Positions 9,185 to 47,357 of a DNA stretch of 64,000 nucleotides are shown piece by piece. How positions within the stretch are numbered: position 1 is the first letter of the stretch; each line of letters begins with the position of its first letter. A program made the position numbers and the translations under genes. The notes under the pieces were generated by a model. That model searched no databases. It was not told the DNA's origin and saw only the letters and a program-made list of their open reading frames with translations. This stretch comes from Escherichia coli (GTDB lineage: Bacteria > Pseudomonadota > Gammaproteobacteria > Enterobacterales > Enterobacteriaceae): assembly GCF_044324875.1 (NCBI RefSeq), contig NZ_CP172185.1. One strand, written 5' to 3'.

Positions 9185-9225
9185 ATTGTAGGGCTGACGG
9201 CACGCCGCACAGCCCGTCACGCTAC

Positions 9226-9879: not shown

Positions 9880-10269
9880 ATGCTGGTTTCTTGCGCAATG
9901 CGACTTCACTCGGGCGTTTTTCCAGATTATGCTGAAAAATTACCTCAGGAAGAAAAGATGGAAAAAGAAGATTCATTTCCCCAACGCGTCTGGCAAATCG
10001 TCGCCGCTATTCCCGAAGGCTATGTCACCACTTACGGTGATGTGGCGAAACTGGCAGGATCGCCCCGCGCCGCGCGCCAGGTGGGCGGTGTGTTAAAGCG
10101 TCTCCCTGAAGGCAGCACCTTGCCCTGGCACCGGGTGGTTAATCGCCACGGCACAATTTCGCTAACCGGACCGGATTTACAGCGTCAACGACAGGCATTA
10201 CTGGCAGAAGGTGTGATGGTATCGGGAAGCGGGCAAATCGACTTGCAGCGTTATCGCTGGAACTACTAA
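9880..10269 (+). CDS. atl: Atl (YbaZ) alkyltransferase-like DNA-binding protein
   Basis: ORF 9859..10269 (TTG in track) trimmed to ATG 9880, MLVSCAMRLHSGVFPD..., 129 aa. Confidence 0.88.
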   Translation: MLVSCAMRLHSGVFPDYAEKLPQEEKMEKEDSFPQRVWQIVAAIPEGYVTTYGDVAKLAGSPRAARQVGGVLKRLPEGSTLPWHRVVNRHGTISLTGPDLQRQRQALLAEGVMVSGSGQIDLQRYRWNY

Positions 10270-10292
10270 CCCTCTCCGGGCGGAGAGGGTTA
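10270..10292. terminator. Hairpin between convergent atl and ybaY, probable bidirectional terminator
   Basis: ccctctccg gg cggagaggg, a perfect 9-bp stem immediately after the atl stop; weak U-tract. Confidence 0.55.
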
Positions 10293-10299
10293 ACTGCGC

Positions 10300-10872
10300 T
10301 TAATATTGCGTAGGAGCTGGAACTGCCGAAGACGGATTCACCTGAGTTGGTGAAGTTGAAGGTACGGTAGTCGTTGCGCCACCGCTGGCCTGAACCGGCA
10401 CGGCGGTTTGCTGCACCGGCACCAATGTCAGGTCGGCTTTAGTTCCGCCCTTGTTGATAACCGGCTGAACGGTATCGGTAATAAATACCAGTTTGTCATT
10501 CACGGTAATCGCCGCACTCAACAGAATACGCGCGTTCGGCTGAACATCTGCCGGGTTAAATGGCAGAACAAAGCTAAATGGTGACTGTTTACCTTCGGTA
10601 CGCACCGCTTTCTGCGCCAGCACTTTTGACGGTGCATCGGCTAACGACGCGTCAGAAAGTGTCACGGTCAGCACAGCATCAGGCGGCAGTGCGACTTTCT
10701 GACGGATCCAGACGGTACCGGAGACATTCGGTTGCTGGATAGCAGGTTGTTGTGTTGCTGAAATAGACGTATTTGCAGCCGGTGCTGGCGTCTGAATATC
10801 CGCGCTTTTATCTGCGCAAGCCGCCAACGCAATCGCAACCGCTAAACCACTGGCCATGTGCACGAGTTTCAT
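10300..10872 (-). CDS. ybaY: YbaY outer-membrane lipoprotein
   Basis: 190-aa ORF MKLVHMASGLAVAIALAACADKS... with signal peptide and lipobox Cys. Confidence 0.9.
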   Translation of the reverse strand: MKLVHMASGLAVAIALAACADKSADIQTPAPAANTSISATQQPAIQQPNVSGTVWIRQKVALPPDAVLTVTLSDASLADAPSKVLAQKAVRTEGKQSPFSFVLPFNPADVQPNARILLSAAITVNDKLVFITDTVQPVINKGGTKADLTLVPVQQTAVPVQASGGATTTVPSTSPTQVNPSSAVPAPTQY

Positions 10873-11088: not shown

Positions 11089-11949
11089 ATGAGTCAGGCG
11101 CTAAAAAATTTACTGACATTGTTAAATCTGGAAAAAATTGAGGAAGGACTCTTTCGCGGCCAGAGTGAAGATTTAGGTTTACGCCAGGTGTTTGGCGGCC
11201 AGGTCGTGGGTCAGGCCTTGTATGCTGCAAAAGAGACCGTCCCTGAAGAGCGGCTGGTACATTCGTTTCACAGCTACTTTCTTCGCCCAGGCGATAGTAA
11301 GAAACCGATTATTTATGATGTCGAAACGCTGCGTGACGGTAACAGCTTCAGCGCCCGCCGGGTTGCTGCTATTCAAAACGGCAAACCGATTTTTTATATG
11401 ACTGCCTCTTTCCAGGCACCAGAAGCGGGTTTCGAACATCAAAAAACAATGCCGTCCGCGCCAGCGCCTGATGGCCTGCCTTCGGAAACGCAAATCGCCC
11501 AATCGCTGGCGCACCTGCTGCCGCCAGTGCTGAAAGATAAATTCATCTGCGATCGTCCGCTTGAAGTCCGTCCGGTGGAGTTTCATAACCCACTGAAAGG
11601 GCACGTCGCAGAACCGCATCGTCAGGTGTGGATCCGCGCAAATGGTAGCGTGCCGGATGATCTGCGCGTTCATCAGTATCTGCTCGGTTACGCTTCTGAT
11701 CTTAACTTCCTGCCGGTAGCTCTACAGCCGCACGGCATCGGTTTTCTCGAACCGGGGATTCAGATTGCCACCATTGACCATTCCATGTGGTTCCATCGCC
11801 CGTTTAATTTGAATGAATGGCTGCTGTATAGCGTGGAGAGCACCTCGGCGTCCAGCGCACGCGGCTTTGTGCGCGGTGAGTTTTATACCCAGGACGGCGT
11901 GCTGGTTGCCTCGACCGTTCAGGAAGGGGTGATGCGTAATCACAATTAA
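11089..11949 (+). CDS. tesB: Acyl-CoA thioesterase II
   Basis: ORF 11005..11949 trimmed to ATG 11089, [31 protein letters not shown]..., 286 aa. Confidence 0.95.
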
Positions 11950-11954
11950 AAAAA

Positions 11955-11988
11955 TAGCCGGAGGTGAAAACCGTCCGGCTGTTTTTTG
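11955..11988. terminator. Bidirectional rho-independent terminator between convergent tesB and amtB
   Basis: agccgga...tccggct stem flanked by an A-run upstream and TTTTTT downstream. Confidence 0.7.
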
Positions 11989-11997
11989 CAGTGCTTG

Positions 11998-13284
11998 TTA
12001 CGCGTTATAGGCATTCTCGCCGTGGCTGTTGACGTCCAGCCCTTCTCGCTCTTGTTCTTCCGGCACACGCAGGCCAACCGTCAGATCCGCCAGTTTGTAG
12101 CCAATAAATGCCACCACACCGGACCAGACGATCGTAATGGCGATGCTTTCCAGCTGTACCAGCAACTGATGGCCCATCGTCACACCTTCAGCTAAGCCCA
12201 CGCCACCCAGCGAACTGGCGGCAAAAATCCCGGTCATGATACAGCCGACAATGCCACAAACGCCGTGCACACCGAAGACATCGCAGGGATCATCCACCCG
12301 CAGCAAGCGTTTGAGCATGGTAACGCCCCACAAGCCCGCTAGACCCGCTACCACGCCGATAATCAACGCGCCGCCAACCCCAATGTAGCCACAGGCTGGC
12401 GTCACGCCGACCAGACCGGCAATCGCGCCTGAACACGCTCCCAGCAGTGAAGGCTTACCACGCAGCGCCCATTCACCGAAGATCCAGCCAAGAATTGCCG
12501 CCGCCGTTGCGACCACAGTATTCACAAATGCCAGTGCTGCGATTTCATTCGCCGTGCCCGCTGACCCGGCGTTAAAGCCAAACCAACCGATATAGAGAAT
12601 GGCAGTCCCGGTGAAGACCATCGGCAGGTTGTGCGGTTTAAACGCCTCTTTGCCGAAGCCCACGCGTTTGCCTATCAGATATGCGCCCACCAGACCGGCG
12701 ATTGCGGCGTTAATGTGCACCACGGTGCCACCCGCGAAATCCAGTGCACCGTGAGAAGCCAGCAAACCGCCGCCCCAGACCATATGCGCAATCGGAATGT
12801 AAGAGAGCGTCAGCCATACCACCACGAAAATCAACACAGCTGAGAAGCGGATTCGTTCCGCCAGCGCCCCAACTATCAAGCCTACGGTAATGCAGGCAAA
12901 CGATCCCTGAAACGCTACGTGGATATACTGATAAATGCTGCCCATCACCGCCGTCAGTTCGATGTTTTTCAGCATCAACCAGTTAATGTTGCCGAAGAAG
13001 TTGTTTCCCTCACCAAACGCCAGCGAGTAACCGTAAACCACCCAGAGAATACAGACCAGTGCAAACGTCACCGTCACCTGCGTCAGCATCGACAGCACGT
13101 TTTTGCCGCGAATCAACCCACCGTAAAACAGGGCAATCCCCGGAATAGTCATAAACAGCACCAGCGCAGTACAAATCATCATAAACGCATTGTCGGCTTT
13201 ATCGGCCACCGCAGGTGCAGCCATTACCAGTCCCGGCAGCATCGCCAGTGAAGCAAGCCCAGTTTTTATCGTCGCTATCTTCAT
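11998..13284 (-). CDS. amtB: Ammonium channel AmtB
   Basis: 428-aa ORF MKIATIKTGLASLAMLPGLVMAAPAVADKADNAFMMICTALVLFMTIPG... Confidence 0.97.
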   Translation of the reverse strand: MKIATIKTGLASLAMLPGLVMAAPAVADKADNAFMMICTALVLFMTIPGIALFYGGLIRGKNVLSMLTQVTVTFALVCILWVVYGYSLAFGEGNNFFGNINWLMLKNIELTAVMGSIYQYIHVAFQGSFACITVGLIVGALAERIRFSAVLIFVVVWLTLSYIPIAHMVWGGGLLASHGALDFAGGTVVHINAAIAGLVGAYLIGKRVGFGKEAFKPHNLPMVFTGTAILYIGWFGFNAGSAGTANEIAALAFVNTVVATAAAILGWIFGEWALRGKPSLLGACSGAIAGLVGVTPACGYIGVGGALIIGVVAGLAGLWGVTMLKRLLRVDDPCDVFGVHGVCGIVGCIMTGIFAASSLGGVGLAEGVTMGHQLLVQLESIAITIVWSGVVAFIGYKLADLTVGLRVPEEQEREGLDVNSHGENAYNA

Positions 13285-20702: not shown

Positions 20703-21398
20703 ATGAAACGTGCTGTCGTTGTGTTCAGTGGAGGCCAGGATTCCACCACCTGTCTGGTGCAGGCATTACAACAATATGATGAAGTCCATTGCGTGACGTT
20801 CGATTACGGTCAGCGACATCGCGCAGAAATCGACGTGGCACGCGAACTGGCGCTGAAACTGGGGGCACGCGCGCATAAGGTTCTTGATGTAACGCTGCTC
20901 AACGAGCTGGCGGTCAGCAGCCTGACGCGTGACAGCATTCCGGTGCCTGATTATGAACCTGAAGCTGATGGCATCCCGAATACGTTTGTCCCAGGGCGTA
21001 ATATTTTGTTCCTGACACTGGCGGCAATATATGCGTATCAGGTAAAAGCAGAAGCCGTAATTACTGGCGTCTGCGAAACGGATTTCTCCGGCTACCCGGA
21101 TTGCCGCGATGAGTTTGTGAAAGCACTAAACCATGCCGTCAGTTTGGGCATGGCGAAAGATATTCGTTTTGAAACGCCGCTGATGTGGATTGATAAAGCG
21201 GAAACCTGGGCGCTGGCAGATTATTACGGCAAACTGGATTTAGTCCGTAACGAAACGTTGACCTGCTATAACGGCATTAAAGGCGACGGTTGCGGTCATT
21301 GTGCGGCATGTAATTTACGCGCCAACGGTTTGAATCATTATCTGGTCGATAAACCGACGGTGATGGCAGCGATGAAGCAGAAAACCGGGTTGAGGTAA
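20703..21398 (+). CDS. queC: 7-cyano-7-deazaguanine synthase QueC
   Basis: 231-aa [42 protein letters not shown]... (PP-loop ATPase SGGxDS). Confidence 0.95.
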
Positions 21399-21412
21399 TT
21401 ATTCCGGGTGTC

Positions 21413-21437
21413 GCCGGATGCGGCTTGAGCATCCGGC
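21413..21437. repeat. REP element between convergent queC and fadM
   Basis: gccggatgcggcttgagcatccggc, matches the REP palindrome family. Confidence 0.7.
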
Positions 21438-21449
21438 ACCACAAAACGT

Positions 21450-21848
21450 TTACTTAACCATCTGCTCGAGCTTTTCGCGCAATTCCCCTTCCAGAGCTAA
21501 TGCTTTCTGCGTTTTAAGATCAATACAAACAAACGTAATAAGCGCATCCGCTACCACCTGCCCTTCCGGCTCCAGTGTAATGACCTGGCTTAAGATGCCG
21601 CTTTTACCGTTTAATTGCTGCAACTGACTGGTAATGGTTAACAGGTCGCTTAATACCGCCGGGCGACGATAGTTAATATTGATATTGACCACGACGAAGG
21701 CGATGTTATGGGCCGTCATCCACTGAAAACTGTCGCTATTTTCCAACCCATCCCAGCGGGCTTCTTCGAGAAACTCCAGATAGCGGGCGTTATTAACGTG
21801 CTGGTAAACATCGAGATGATATCCACGAACTTTGATTTGTGTTTGCAT
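21450..21848 (-). CDS. fadM: Long-chain acyl-CoA thioesterase III FadM (YbaW)
   Basis: 132-aa ORF MQTQIKVRGYHLDVYQHVNNARYLEFLEEARWDGLE... (hotdog fold). Confidence 0.93.
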   Translation of the reverse strand: MQTQIKVRGYHLDVYQHVNNARYLEFLEEARWDGLENSDSFQWMTAHNIAFVVVNININYRRPAVLSDLLTITSQLQQLNGKSGILSQVITLEPEGQVVADALITFVCIDLKTQKALALEGELREKLEQMVK

Positions 21849-22092
21849 AGCGCAATAACCTTACGTTGTTTTTATAAAAACTGTTATAAGTGCAAAATGG
21901 CATCTGAATCGATCGCAGTTTGGCATTCGAATCGATCATGATTTGGCATCCATCTCCGATCACAGTTTGGCATCACAATCGATCACGATTTGGCATGCTT
22001 CCGATCATTGATTGGCATCCTGCCAGTCACTCCGGGAATTAACTCTTTTCACCACAGTCTCCATTGCCGTGTTTAAACCAGTGGAGACGTCA

Positions 22093-23658
22093 ATGTCCAG
22101 AAAGAGAAAATCCAGGAGCACTATGGAAACCTGTTTTAAGATCCTTCAGCTCAAGTTCGACAAGAAGCTGACTAACCGTTGTATCGGACTGACGTTACAC
22201 ATCAGCGCCTCAACCGTTTTTGAGGTTCTTGCCCGCTTCAAAGCCTCTTCTCTGTCATGGCCATTACCTGCTGATATATCCCATGACACGCTGGAGAAAC
22301 TCATTTTTCCGCCCAAAGACACCTTTGCATCAGAGCTTGTAATGCCTGACATGTTGTACTTCGATACGGAAATGAGAAAACCAGGTGTGACGCGGCAACT
22401 GTTGTGGATGGAATACAAGGCACAGGCGGGTAACAAAGCGATGGGATACTCGCACTTCTGCCGTTGCTACCGGGAGTGGAAAAAAACGCGACGTCTCTCC
22501 ATGCGCCAGGAGCATCGTGCCGGCGAAAAGCTTTTTATCGACTTCTGTGGTCCTACGGTTCCTGTTATTAATCCGGACACCGGTGAGATACGCCGCGTGG
22601 CAATCTTCGTGGCCGTAATGGGGGCGTCCAACTATACCTACGTTGAAGCGTGCGAAGGTCAGGACATGATGTCATGGTTAAATGCCCACAGCCGTTGCCT
22701 GACCTTCCTGGGCGGCGTACCGAAGCTGCTCATCCCCGATAACCTCAGAAGCGCAGTGAAAAAGGCCGATCGATATGAGCCTGTCATCAACGACAGTTAT
22801 CAGGCACTGGCTGAGCACTATGGCACGGTTATCATCCCGGCCCGACCACGCAAACCTAAAGATAAACCAAAAGCAGAAAACGGCGTCCTCATCGTTGAAC
22901 GATGGCTTCTTGCCCGCATCCGTAATGAAACCTTCCACACGCTCAGGGCGCTGAATGCGCGCCTTAGGGAGTTACTGACAGACATGAATAACCGGCCAAT
23001 GAAGGGGTACGGCAATCAAACCCGTGCAGAACGCTTCCGCATACTGGATGCGCCAGCACTCTCTCCGCTGCCTCTGGCACCTTATGAATACACGGAATAC
23101 AAAGCTGTGAAGGTTGGCCCTGACTACCACGTTGAATATGCCCGTCACTGGTACTCCGTTCCACACGAACTGGTCGGTCAGCGTCTGTCACTGAAGGCGG
23201 GGCAGTCGGTGGTACAGCTCTGGCACAAGGGGCAGTGTGTGGCGCAACATCCGCGCAGCACACATGAATATAAACACACAACCAATCCGCTTCACATGCC
23301 AGAGCGCCACCGGCAGCACGGGACATGGACACCGGAACGCCTGATCGAGCAGGGAAAACGTACGGGCCCGTCCACAGGCCGGGTGGTTGAATCCATGCTG
23401 AAGGCAAAACCCCATCCGGAACTGGCTTATCGTGCAGTTCTGGGGCTGCTGGCACTTCAGAAAAAATACGGCCCGGAACGGCTGGAAAAGGCCTGTTACG
23501 TTGCCCTGCACTATAACGCCCCTGACAGACGCTTTATCGACAATCTGCTGCGTCACCATCGGGAGAACCTGGAGCTTCCATTATCCCGCCAGGGCGAACA
23601 ACATCCGGCATATGCTTCAGAGCATGAAAACCTGCGTGGTCCGGGCTACTACCACTGA
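22093..23658 (+). CDS. istA: IS21-family transposase IstA
   Basis: ORF 22012..23658 trimmed to ATG 22093 (ggagacg SD-like sequence upstream); large transposase-sized protein, IstA-like by pattern; start could instead be ATG 22123. Confidence 0.8.
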   Translation: MSRKRKSRSTMETCFKILQLKFDKKLTNRCIGLTLHISASTVFEVLARFKASSLSWPLPADISHDTLEKLIFPPKDTFASELVMPDMLYFDTEMRKPGVTRQLLWMEYKAQAGNKAMGYSHFCRCYREWKKTRRLSMRQEHRAGEKLFIDFCGPTVPVINPDTGEIRRVAIFVAVMGASNYTYVEACEGQDMMSWLNAHSRCLTFLGGVPKLLIPDNLRSAVKKADRYEPVINDSYQALAEHYGTVIIPARPRKPKDKPKAENGVLIVERWLLARIRNETFHTLRALNARLRELLTDMNNRPMKGYGNQTRAERFRILDAPALSPLPLAPYEYTEYKAVKVGPDYHVEYARHWYSVPHELVGQRLSLKAGQSVVQLWHKGQCVAQHPRSTHEYKHTTNPLHMPERHRQHGTWTPERLIEQGKRTGPSTGRVVESMLKAKPHPELAYRAVLGLLALQKKYGPERLEKACYVALHYNAPDRRFIDNLLRHHRENLELPLSRQGEQHPAYASEHENLRGPGYYH

Positions 23659-23674
23659 CAGAAGGAACAACAGT

Positions 23675-24430
23675 ATGAGTGATAACCTGTTAAACAAACT
23701 GACCCAACTGAAACTCCCGGCGATGGCCGGGAGCCTGATACGGCAGCGGGAAACGCCTCAGACCTACGACGAACTGTCGTTCGAGGAAAGGCTGACGCTG
23801 CTGGTTGATGACGAGCTTCTGAGCAGGGAAAACAGCCGTGTGGCACGGTTGAGAAAAAATGCCGGCCTGAAATACCAGGCAACACCGGAAGGGCTGCGCT
23901 ATCCGGCCTCAAGAGGTCTGCGGGCTGAACAGATGAGAGAACTGCTGAACGGCCACTACATAACCCACAGGAAAAACCTGCTGATAACCGGTCCGACAGG
24001 ATGTGGCAAGAGCTGGATAGCCAATGCGCTGGGCGAACAGGCATGTCGACAGAAACACAGCGTCCGGTACTGTAGAACCGGGCGATTACTGGAACAACTG
24101 GCTCAGGGACGTGTTGATGGCAGCTGGCTGAAATATCTGAAACAGTTGCAAAAAATACAGGTTCTAATCCTGGACGATCTGGGGCTGGAACAGTTAAGTA
24201 ACGCCCAGTGTAATGACCTTCTGGAGCTCATAGAGGATCGTTACGGACAAAGCAGCACGATAGTGGTAAGCCAGTTCCCGGTAGATAAATGGCATGGTCT
24301 GATGGAGAACCCAACAACAGCAGATGCCATCCTGGACAGACTGGTACATAACTCACACCGAGTGGTCCTTCAGGGAGAGTCACTGAGGAAAAATCCCCCG
24401 GTAGTGGAAAGCAGCGAAAAAACGCGTTAA
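23675..24430 (+). CDS. istB: IS21-family ATP-binding helper protein IstB
   Basis: ORF 23432..24430 trimmed to ATG 23675 (aagga SD), 251 aa; Walker A GPTGCGKS and Walker B VLILDDLG; 16 bp after the istA stop. Confidence 0.85.
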   Translation: MSDNLLNKLTQLKLPAMAGSLIRQRETPQTYDELSFEERLTLLVDDELLSRENSRVARLRKNAGLKYQATPEGLRYPASRGLRAEQMRELLNGHYITHRKNLLITGPTGCGKSWIANALGEQACRQKHSVRYCRTGRLLEQLAQGRVDGSWLKYLKQLQKIQVLILDDLGLEQLSNAQCNDLLELIEDRYGQSSTIVVSQFPVDKWHGLMENPTTADAILDRLVHNSHRVVLQGESLRKNPPVVESSEKTR

Positions 24431-24545
24431 AAAGCGGTAGAAAAAGTTAAGTTCCCGGTTGATCGAATGGATGCGAATCGCTGATCGGACTTCGATGCCA
24501 ATCCGTGATCGAATAGAGCGGAATACGCAATAAGTACAGAGGTCA

Positions 24546-26991
<2,446 letters not shown>

Positions 26992-32229: not shown

Positions 32230-32474
32230 TTCCGTCTCCTGGATAAAATTGAAAAAACCTGCTGTACCGATTGTAACCTTATGGACGGATTATCAGCTAG
32301 TCCCTGTGTTATGGGTACGGCATCACCATATTTCAAGCATAACAATCTTTTGTTGTTACGCTAACACCGAAAGAGGCTTTTCGCACGGTTCCATGCAAAA
32401 TTCATGACAAAAAAAAGCCCACCACCTGGCGGTGACGGGCTTTTGTGCGAATTTAGCGCGTTATGCTGCGTAAA

Positions 32475-33782
<1,308 letters not shown>

Positions 33783-34116
33783 TCAAAAAATCACAGTGCT
33801 CGGTCAACTCTTACCCCGCAAGCACAGGTTGTTGGCTTCGCGGAACCGGGATGTTCTTATAATCAATCACATTCCCTGTTACCAGAATCATCCCGAAAGC
33901 ATTCAAATAGGACGCGGCATTATAGCGGCATCACTTTTATGAGTCGAGAACGGTTATTGCGCGCTGTCGCGTATTTTTTCACAATTCCCGGGCAATTTTC
34001 GTCTGAATGCTGGGCAAAAAGCGCAAAATCCAGACAAAACAAAACGGCCCGCAGGCCGTTTTTCATAAAATCTTTAGCAACATACTGGAAAAGCGCCGAC
34101 AGTTGCAAATGCGTTT

Positions 34117-42091: not shown

Positions 42092-42239
42092 CACAACCTC
42101 TCAGTTAAAAAGGTGCTACGGCACCTTTTTTCTTAGCATTAGAATCATATCCCTCTCGAAATATTTACTAAAAAATCCGCATGTTTACCCCATTCGTTTG
42201 CCGCTTTACACTAGTCGCGAATTTAAAACAGAGGTGGTA

Positions 42240-43614: not shown

Positions 43615-43715
43615 GAATTGCCTGCTGCGCTACGCTTACCAGGCCTACAAAGTTCCTGAGTTATAAACCTTTGTAGGCCGAATTAGCTGTTCATGCTGCA
43701 TTCGGCATGAACAAA
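43615..43715. repeat. REP/BIME-type palindromic cluster between convergent yajR and yajQ
   Basis: tgcctgctgcgctacgcttaccaggcctaca is REP-like; a second hairpin gttcatgc...gcatgaac lies near 43690-43713. Confidence 0.65.
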
Positions 43716-44223: not shown

Positions 44224-44390
44224 CTTTTCCTCTCCCTTCATTTTTGATGCGAAGCATAATACCTGCAAAGTTAAATAACCAACAGTCCTGCACCAGGACG
44301 TATCCCTTAATTGTGCATAGTCGCAACAGCATGCACAATTAAGGGATAGCCTTATTGAACACCCGGAGTGGTTGCGGGTGAGGAGGAACA

Positions 44391-45855
<1,465 letters not shown>

Positions 45856-45870
45856 TGGCGGATGCGGCAA

Positions 45871-45898
45871 ACGTCGCATCTGACCAGATGCGACGTAA
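45871..45898. terminator. Perfect palindrome between convergent yajL and thiI (REP-like, bidirectional terminator candidate)
   Basis: cgtcgcatctg acc cagatgcgacg, an 11-bp perfect stem. Confidence 0.55.
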
Positions 45899-45908
45899 AA
45901 ACCACAAA

Positions 45909-47357
45909 TTACGGGCGATATACCTTCACATTGTTAAAGCCCTGCTCGCGCAGATAGAGCGCCTGCAGGCGGCTCATCACCCCGCGCTCACACCACAACA
46001 GCCAGGTTTTGTTCTGGTCGAGATCGCCAAATTTGGTGCTCAGTTTATAGAACGGCAGAGAAACCACATCAATCCCTTCGACTTTCAGCGGCTTATCTTC
46101 CTGTTCATCGATAGAACGGATATCGAGGATCACGTCGTTCGGGCCGAAGCCATTGACGGTTTCCACTTCCACCACTTCCTGCTCGGTCTGCTGGGCGATT
46201 TCGCGGATATCAACGTTATTCGCTTCCTCAACCACTTTATCGAGAATGCTGAAGTCGAACTTCTCTTCTTCCGCTTCAATCTTCGATTTAACCGCTTTCA
46301 CCGTCGGGCTTTTGGAGATCACACCGCAATATTCGGGCATCGTGCGGGCAAAGTCTTCAGTGCCAATCTGGCGAGCCAGGTTGATGATGTGCTCTTTGTC
46401 GTAAGAAATCAGCGGACGCAGGATCAGCGTGTCGGAGACGTTATCAATCAGGCGCAGGTTAGTCAGCGTCTGGCTAGACACCTGGCCCAGTGCTTCGCCA
46501 GTGACCAGCGCCTGTACACCGTAACGTTCAGCCACTTTAGACGCGGCACGCACCATCATACGTTTGAGGATAACACCCATCTGACCGTCGTCGATTTTCT
46601 CGAGAATTTCCCCGACGACAGGTTCGAAATTAATAGCGACAAAACGCACGCGGTGGGAGCTGCCAAAGCGGTTCCACAGATAATGCGCCACCTGACGCAC
46701 GCCAATTTCATGCGCCGCGCCGCCGAGGTTAAAGAAGCAGTAATGCACGCGGCAGCCGCGACGCATCAACATATAGCTGGAAACGCCGGAGTCGAAACCA
46801 CCGGAAATGAGCGACAGCACATCTTCCTGGGTACCAATCGGGAAACCGCCAATACCTTCATAGCGACCTTTAATCAGCAGGAGACGATCGTCTTCCACTT
46901 CCAGATGGACAGTGACATCCGGGTTAGTCAGCTTCACGCGCGCGGATTCAATATGCTGATTTAAACCGCCGCCGACGTAACGTTCCACATCAATCGAGCT
47001 AAAATCATGTTTGCCGCGGCGCTTCACGCGTACGCAGAAGGTTTTCCCTTCCAGCTGATCGCGATACTGAACCAACGCTTTCTCAAAAATATCGTGCATG
47101 TCGGTAAACGGCACGTCTTCGACTTCGAGAATATGGTGGATACCCGGAATACGGGTCAGGGCGTCGCGAATGGCCAGACGCTGGTTTTCATCTTTTGCGC
47201 GAACTTCGATGTTATCCCAGTGGCGGACGACAGCGAGCGTCTCATCATAGTGCTTTAAAACGTTACGAATGTTCCCGGTAAGGATTTTTATAAAGCGCAA
47301 GCGCACAGATTGGCTTTTGATGGTGATTTCCGGGAACAATTTAATGATAAACTTCAT
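45909..47357 (-). CDS. thiI: tRNA 4-thiouridine synthase / thiamine biosynthesis sulfurtransferase ThiI
   Basis: 482-aa [55 protein letters not shown]... Confidence 0.96.

Follow-up and report, generated by a model that had tools for sequence, protein, structure and literature searches.

Where two genes converge on a short spacer that holds a palindrome, does the palindrome form the 3′ end of both transcripts, and how would each transcript be ended there? The question is raised by a 64,000-nucleotide stretch of Escherichia coli DNA (hereafter the window), for which an initial annotation had noted a single strong palindrome in the short spacer of each of four convergent pairs (atl/ybaY, tesB/amtB, queC/fadM and yajL/thiI) and had read these palindromes as shared terminators.

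Palindromes in four convergent spacers

The window corresponds to approximately 427.3-486.2 kb of the K-12 MG1655 chromosome in reverse orientation, with 97-99% identity and three insertions relative to K-12, and gene coordinates within it were obtained by transferring the K-12 annotation through this mapping. A 2-kb piece surrounding tesB/amtB was matched in 5,424 of 5,426 complete E. coli genomes, and the annotation there is tesB and amtB. The palindromes were found where the initial annotation had placed them, one per convergent spacer, and the spacers are indeed short (30-53 nt):

atl (ybaZ), 9880-10269 (+), and ybaY, 10300-10872 (−): spacer 10270-10299 (30 nt), palindrome 10267-10292 with a perfect 11-bp stem
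tesB, 11089-11949 (+), and amtB, 11998-13284 (−): spacer 11950-11997 (48 nt), palindrome 11955-11981
queC, 20703-21398 (+), and fadM, 21450-21848 (−): spacer 21399-21449 (51 nt), palindrome 21413-21437 with a perfect 9-bp stem
yajL, 45265-45855 (+), and thiI, 45909-47357 (−): spacer 45856-45908 (53 nt), palindrome 45871-45896 with a perfect 11-bp stem

Folded as RNA, the four palindromes reached −18 to −24 kcal/mol on both strands, with z-scores of −3.8 to −6.4 calculated for each strand against 200 dinucleotide-preserving shuffles, none of which equalled the native sequence. When perfect inverted repeats (stem of at least 9 bp, loop of 3-12 nt) were counted across the 64-kb window, 11 were observed compared with 1.55 in shuffled sequence. 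All 11 were intergenic and three were sites named in the initial annotation, tesB/amtB being absent from this set because its stem is bulged. Sliding 40-nt folds of both strands ranked the four sites 4th, 7th, 15th and 30th among the non-overlapping segments of the 64 kb. Related loci were collected by a scan for TesB, which yielded 80 Enterobacteriaceae loci with 10-kb flanks in which gene ends were located by tblastn; hairpins were present in 98-100% of the orthologous spacers, compared with 4-33% of shuffles.

Terminators were called with a program of our own that folds the sequence upstream of each T-rich segment on both strands and scores a U-tract as at least 5 U in 8 nt, starting 0-2 nt past the stem. 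Among the four sites, a hairpin followed by a U-tract on both strands was detected only at tesB/amtB. No call was made on either strand at atl/ybaY, queC/fadM or yajL/thiI, and since these sites have no U-tract they were not classed as intrinsic terminators. The bulge in its stem is probably why the tesB/amtB element escaped a built-in terminator scan. Searches against Rfam identified no family in any of the spacers, the sole matches in the window being SRP RNA and sraA.

The initial annotation had named Term-seq or other 3′-end mapping as the way to check its reading, and such maps have been published for K-12. One such list, with 306 bidirectional terminators of K-12, is reprinted by Harris et al. 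2026 (bioRxiv 10.64898/2026.03.23.713779) in their supplement, with their reference 47 as its source. An element enters this list when the 3′ ends of opposite transcripts overlap between convergent genes. We take the source of the list to be the SEnd-seq study of Ju, Li & Liu 2019. All four sites are present in it, as consecutive entries whose hairpin sequences are identical to those of the window:

#31, yajL/thiI, K-12 443004-443039 (window 45867-45902): labelled REP39, log and stationary phase
#32, fadM/queC, K-12 464806-464841 (window 21409-21444): labelled REP41, log and stationary phase
#33, tesB/amtB, K-12 474262-474299 (window 11951-11988): labelled REP42, log and stationary phase
#34, ybaZ/ybaY, K-12 475955-475987 (window 10264-10296): no REP label, stationary phase only

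These entries support the view that the four palindromes are shared 3′-end elements, one per convergent spacer serving both genes; for K-12, the four sites and the principle were already known. None of the four spacers has a 3′ end in the curated Term-seq list published by Adams et al. 2021 (numeric matches were to unrelated coordinates or scores). This gap probably stems from expression thresholds and is taken here as an absence of data, not as a refutation. The genes of these pairs are not mentioned in the TERMITe supplements.

The list given in the initial annotation was incomplete, as hairpins were also found at pdeB/ybaA, yajR/yajQ, tsx/yajD and a strain-specific junction at pgpA. The pdeB/ybaA hairpin (9191-9218; GGGCTG...CAGCCC with an inner GGC/GCC stem), which lies in a fifth convergent spacer, is kept in 18 of 18 distinct spacers, and a K-12 Term-seq 3′ end of pdeB at 477032(−) maps to approximately 9219 (+) of the window, just past the hairpin. 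At yajR/yajQ a 9-bp perfect stem (43688-43713) is located beside a longer hairpin. The tsx/yajD junction is entry #29 of the published K-12 terminator list; its hairpin reads GCCGGATACAAGATCAGGC in the window (59577-59609) and GCCGGGAAUAAAUCCCGGC in K-12 (431093-431125), within a spacer that is 92% identical overall. At pgpA, approximately 2 kb (51621-53602) replaces the K-12 pgpA/yajO spacer with its REP38 (terminator #30). The insert encodes a pentapeptide-repeat protein of 523 aa (51851-53422, +), and the new convergent spacer (53423-53598) holds two hairpins, at 53518-53539 and 53556-53591.

Other differences from K-12 and other palindromes were observed along the window. Between fadM and ybaV, a 2.65-kb insertion relative to K-12 (21878-24529) carries two ORFs whose Pfam matches are of the kind seen in IS21-family elements, one with integrase core and Mu-transposase C-terminal domains (22012-23658) and one matching the IstB ATPase (23432-24430); a perfect 10-bp palindrome (24538-24562) stands just outside its right end. 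An insertion of approximately 690 bp between secF and yajD (60164-60851), absent from K-12, encodes a ParD antitoxin (60459-60701, −) and a ParE toxin (60185-60499, −). The longest palindrome of the window, identical in K-12, is TATCCCTTAATTGTGCAT...ATGCACAATTAAGGGATA (44301-44348), an inverted repeat whose two 18-bp arms match perfectly around a 12-nt loop; it is situated within the promoter region from which yajQ and panE diverge. Between the divergent genes acrR and acrA lies TACATACATTTGTGAATGTATGTA (518-541), an AT-rich perfect palindrome of 10 bp that, from its appearance, is presumably the AcrR operator.

The terminator between tesB and amtB

The tesB/amtB element consists of three adjoining parts:

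11948-11954: A7 tract, holding the last two bases of the tesB stop codon and serving as template for the U-tract in the amtB direction
11955-11981: hairpin with an AGCCGGA/TCCGGCT stem (7 bp), a GG/CC upper stem with one bulged G (3 bp) and a 6-nt loop
11982-11988 (+): T6 tract (11982-11987) followed by G, the U-tract of the tesB-direction transcript

The + strand is laid out as TAAAAAAAT-AGCCGGAGG-TGAAAA-CCGTCCGGCT-GTTTTTTGC. The tesB transcript (+) contains the hairpin and then GUUUUUUG, and the amtB transcript (−) contains the same hairpin and then AUUUUUUU. The hairpin folds at −24.1 kcal/mol (z −6.35) on the + strand and at −17.9 kcal/mol (z −5.36) on the − strand, and the 78 nt surrounding the element are identical to K-12. 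Published K-12 3′ ends mapped to the window fall at 11951 (−) in the amtB direction and at 11988 (+) in the tesB direction. In entry #33 the last letters are ...GGCUAUUUU for the amtB-direction transcript and ...GGCUGUUUUUUG for that of the tesB direction; each end is located within its U-tract or immediately beyond it, which fits the expectation for two-way intrinsic termination. The terminator caller and the K-12 3′ ends on both strands thus agree with the proposal in the initial annotation that this site, with U-tracts on both strands, is truly bidirectional. We conclude that 11948-11988 is very probably a canonical two-way intrinsic terminator common to tesB (+) and the glnK-amtB operon (−). 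RNA polymerase arriving from either side would transcribe the hairpin and then a U-tract before being released, and antisense read-through from each gene would thereby be kept out of the other.

A symmetric layout alone is no proof of two-way use, since hairpins flanked by an A-tract and a T-tract also occur outside convergent pairs (42107-42130, 34041-34062, 60791-60830 and 32407-32446), for example after the non-convergent genes cyoE and bolA. Termination in the two directions also may not be equally tight. One of the Rho regions reported by Adams et al. 2021, with a Rho score of 3.3, lies on the strand opposite amtB at K-12 474030(−), approximately 270 nt past the tesB stop; for the amtB direction they list none. 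This suggests either that the tesB-direction terminator leaks somewhat or that other antisense transcripts start there, and a leak would fit the weaker conservation of the tesB-direction U-tract across species.

tesB and amtB are convergent neighbours in 73 of the Enterobacteriaceae loci, giving 72 distinct spacers of 42-273 nt, and a hairpin of −11.8 kcal/mol or below was found in 72 of 72. The hairpin was joined to a U-tract in the amtB direction in 60/72 spacers, in the tesB direction in 36/72 and in both directions in 34/72. Among the 56 spacers of up to 120 nt the corresponding counts were 42, 24 and 23, compared with 3, 2 and 0 of 56 for shuffled sequences.

The tesB/amtB hairpins showed no sequence kinship between genera. 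The arms are AGCCGGAGG...CCGTCCGGCT in Escherichia, GCCTCCC...GGGAGGC in Klebsiella, Raoultella, Kluyvera and Kosakonia, and CGGCAACC...GGTTGCCG in Enterobacter; the spacer is occupied by REPs in Citrobacter and Salmonella and by CCCTCTCCC...GGGAGAGGG repeats in some Enterobacter species. In E. albertii and E. whittamii, approximately 135 bp with two inverted REPs are inserted straight after the Escherichia hairpin, with loss of the tesB-direction T-tract and retention of the amtB-direction U-tract. Judged from these spacers, what is conserved at tesB/amtB is a hairpin, mainly as an amtB-direction terminator, and not one particular sequence. REP-derived palindromes may become true intrinsic terminators at this position by gaining flanking A and T tracts.

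Within E. coli, two alleles were observed at the base of the stem (11955 and 11981): T...G with a T6 tract in the window and K-12, and C...A with a T7 tract in the comparison of loci L004/L005. The T...G allele gives a U.G pair in tesB-sense RNA, and the C...A allele gives a U.G pair in amtB-sense RNA.

Hairpins at the other three sites

The remaining three spacers carry the following elements:

10267-10292: atl(ybaZ)/ybaY hairpin, TAACCCTCTCC-GGGC-GGAGAGGGTTA, 11 bp, overlapping the atl stop codon, with no U-tract on either side
21413-21437: queC/fadM palindrome, GCCGGATGC-GGCTTGA-GCATCCGGC, REP41 in K-12, with no U-tract
45857-45896: yajL/thiI element of REP39 type, with three arms GATGCGGC / GTCGCATC / GATGCGAC that make alternative hairpins possible, and no U-tract

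The initial annotation had described all three as REP-like. This holds for queC/fadM and yajL/thiI and fails for atl/ybaY. A REP consensus, GCCGGATGCGGCG, was matched with up to 2 mismatches at 21413 (1 mismatch) and 45857 (2 mismatches), and at neither the tesB/amtB nor the atl/ybaY hairpin. K-12 labels from the supplement of Harris et al. 2026 follow the same lines at three sites (yajL/thiI REP39, fadM/queC REP41, ybaZ/ybaY none) and designate tesB/amtB as REP42, so that the distinction between terminator and REP drawn in the initial annotation is not clean; by its letters, the tesB/amtB element would count as REP-like only in its GCCGGA/TCCGGC core. The K-12 RefSeq record as retrieved lists no repeat features.

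The main yajL/thiI hairpin (11 bp, 45871-45896) is invariant in two divergent alleles while its flanks vary, a comparison made within E. coli only. Of the 5425 records from complete E. coli genomes that match the queC/fadM element, 5342 do so at 99% identity or more; queC and fadM were adjacent and convergent in just 7 of the loci collected. The single perfect palindrome of E. coli has as its counterpart in E. albertii a full pair of inverted REPs, and it looks like the outer halves of these two REPs joined together. BLAST with a 45-nt queC/fadM query returned a median of 1 place per genome (maximum 6), a count to be read with the query being too short for diverged REP copies and the database too large. 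That these two elements act mainly in mRNA stabilisation, as the initial annotation had suggested, is plausible; the source list of 3′ ends classes both as terminators. Harris et al. 2026 describe REPs as 3′-UTR regulators that both terminate and stabilise, with approximately 60% of REPs located between convergent genes, and report that mRNAs ending in a REP show no genome-wide increase in half-life.

The atl/ybaY hairpin has no REP label and no consensus match and was therefore not classed as a REP. The convergent arrangement was found in 52 loci, with a spacer of 28-36 nt in 43 of these. A hairpin of −12 kcal/mol or below was present in 98% of 46 distinct Enterobacteriaceae spacers, compared with 4% of shuffles, and in 46/47 when the spacer of the window itself was included; it mostly begins −3 to +4 nt from the atl stop. 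The 47 distinct spacers contain 31 different 5′ arms, and U-tracts are essentially absent. With 44 spacers aligned by MAFFT, RNAalifold found no consensus structure, since the register of the alignment shifts between genera; each sequence was instead folded against shuffles, and pairs were tallied with the loop as anchor. In the tally, every one of nine stem positions was paired in 27-40 of 40 sequences, by 3-6 kinds of pair that include several Watson-Crick types; as it was fitted to each sequence's own fold, this tally leans towards pairing.

The atl/ybaY hairpin is not equivalent on the two strands. A recurrent mismatch reads C.A on the atl-sense strand and forms a G.U pair on the ybaY-sense strand, and the hairpin was stabler in ybaY-sense RNA in 24 cases, compared with 6 for the opposite. 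Mean folds were −15.8 kcal/mol (ybaY-sense) and −13.8 kcal/mol (atl-sense; Wilcoxon p = 2e-5, for sequences that are not phylogenetically independent). The asymmetry between G.U and C.A points to selection at the RNA level, which would act chiefly on the ybaY transcript. The 5′ arm is pyrimidine-rich (mean 78%) in nearly all genera (loci L004-L083). In both transcripts the C/U-rich arm comes first and the purine-rich arm second, a bias like that of many published K-12 terminator stems. Such a hairpin might be a factor-independent or collision-type terminator, or a site for an RNA-binding protein. It seems doubtful that it represents a distinct class of dedicated 3′-end element, defined as non-REP, without a U-tract and fixed to the atl stop.

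In E. coli Z1323HEC0355 (NZ_CP148363.1, 1-140) a Tn5-type mosaic end, TGTGTATAAGAGACAG, abuts the loop of the atl/ybaY hairpin, so that the left arm and atl are displaced. The spacer is matched at only 80-90% identity in 309 E. coli genomes; in the one examined, the Tn5 end lies beside the hairpin.

Transcript release and relation to known systems

At atl/ybaY, queC/fadM and yajL/thiI, stable hairpins without a U-tract would mark a 3′ boundary common to both transcripts. Most likely, a large share of polymerases run past the hairpin at queC/fadM and yajL/thiI and would be stopped by Rho within approximately 100-300 nt, the hairpin setting the steady-state 3′ end by blocking 3′-to-5′ exonucleases. 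A scheme of this kind was proposed by Dar & Sorek 2018, where Rho terminates just downstream and 3′-to-5′ exonucleases trim back to a stable hairpin lacking a U-tract. Bicyclomycin DirectRNA-seq (Adams et al. 2021, supplementary file 2) places Rho regions at K-12 443228(+), antisense to yajL, at 442717(−), antisense to thiI, and at 464707(−), antisense to fadM, and the supplement of Harris et al. 2026 contains an in vitro Rho site at 464716-464812(−) that abuts REP41. In the 100 nt downstream, the C/G ratio was 2.15 in the queC direction, 1.75 in the yajL direction and 1.89 in the thiI direction, where the 95th percentile for the window is 1.6. These Rho regions and the C-rich, G-poor, rut-like downstream sequence at the REP sites match the Dar & Sorek model. 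Intermediate ratios were obtained for ybaY (1.45), fadM (1.53), tesB (1.29) and amtB (1.45). The atl direction is G-rich downstream (0.67), which makes Rho unlikely there, and the published K-12 tables list no Rho region around ybaY/ybaZ. At atl/ybaY a conserved non-REP hairpin, selected mainly in ybaY-sense RNA, would do the same 3′-boundary job.

Taken together, these observations make it very probable that tesB/amtB is an intrinsic two-way terminator and that the other three are shared 3′-boundary hairpins, the REP sites being Rho-stopped and exonuclease-blocking and atl/ybaY being a conserved non-REP element. We infer the manner of release at each site from the anatomy, statistics and conservation computed here, together with 3′-end overlap and Rho regions taken from K-12 tables for identical sequence.

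The authors of the 306-terminator list held that most of its elements are neither intrinsic nor Rho-dependent and proposed polymerase collisions instead. Applied to all four sites, this would mean that the hairpin pauses polymerase and that head-on and trailing polymerases cause its release independently of a U-tract or Rho (Ju 2019; Wang 2022). We regard this as possible rather than likely: all four sites belong to the list from which the model was derived, it requires nothing beyond a stem-loop where two genes converge, U-tracts are missing from three of the four sites and the atl direction has no rut-like sequence downstream, but tesB/amtB has full intrinsic anatomy in both directions, with 3′ ends in its U-tracts, so that collisions are unneeded there, and bicyclomycin-sensitive read-through occurs just past the REP hairpins. 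Moreover, collisions work best for highly expressed pairs, and the genes of the four pairs are presumably mostly weakly expressed, which counts against the model. Collisions are compatible with the combination of intrinsic, Rho-dependent and protective functions set out above and do not exclude it; their contribution may be greatest for transcripts leaving atl, which run into G-rich sequence and for which the tables give no Rho region.

It is far less likely that the palindromes act as DNA, be it as cruciforms, as sites for proteins reported to bind REPs or as leftovers of REP mobility, with no role in ending transcripts. Three of the four sites carry REP labels, REPs come and go in these spacers from one species or strain to another, and other perfect palindromes are found in divergent promoter regions, such as that between acrR and acrA (518-541). 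However, 3′ ends overlap on all four sites, the strand asymmetry of G.U and C.A at atl/ybaY matters only in RNA, and unrelated hairpins occupy the same spot across genera, with the amtB-direction U-tract kept in 60 of 72 spacers. Harris et al. 2026 also found no role for REPs in chromosome compaction. That the palindromes are chance features without function has a negligible probability: although GC-rich sequence folds easily and coding regions also yield strong 40-nt folds, a chance origin is refuted by the shuffles (0/200 folded as well, at any site on either strand), by the intergenic location of all 11 perfect stems (1.55 expected) and by the hairpins in orthologous spacers (98-100%, compared with 4-33% of shuffles).

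On the preferred reading of shared 3′-end elements, the four palindromes define where the transcripts of eight E. coli genes end and keep down antisense read-through from one convergent gene into the other, which matters little beyond annotation. The wider lesson comes from the comparison of species, where spacers conserve a hairpin (for amtB, a hairpin with a U-tract) and not a particular sequence, and terminators, REPs and other repeats interchange at the same spot. Such turnover of hairpins is a caution for terminator annotation and supports the view of REPs as recruited 3′-end elements.

Canonical bidirectional intrinsic terminators are exemplified in E. coli by the tonB/P14 terminator. 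tesB/amtB resembles this type in its full A-tract, GC-rich stem-loop and T-tract, and in 3′ ends that fall in the U-tracts on both strands; atl/ybaY, queC/fadM and yajL/thiI differ from it by having no U-tracts. Compared with the protective stem-loops of Dar & Sorek 2018, the queC, yajL and thiI directions are alike in lacking a U-tract and in having a Rho region and C-rich, G-poor sequence downstream, whereas the atl direction differs in its G-rich downstream sequence; exonuclease trimming, which belongs to that system, is for the present sites a predicted step. With the REP 3′-UTR regulators of Harris et al. 2026, queC/fadM, yajL/thiI and tesB/amtB share a REP label and a position between convergent genes, while atl/ybaY is non-REP, tesB/amtB has just the GCCGGA...TCCGGC core in common with the REP consensus, and queC/fadM, with two inverted REPs in E. 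albertii, has one perfect palindrome here. The closest likeness is to the K-12 bidirectional terminators #31-34, which are the same loci with identical hairpins and overlapping 3′ ends: the strain of the window differs from them in flanking bases only, and from the K-12 set in that a 2-kb insertion has cost it entry #30 (REP38, pgpA/yajO).
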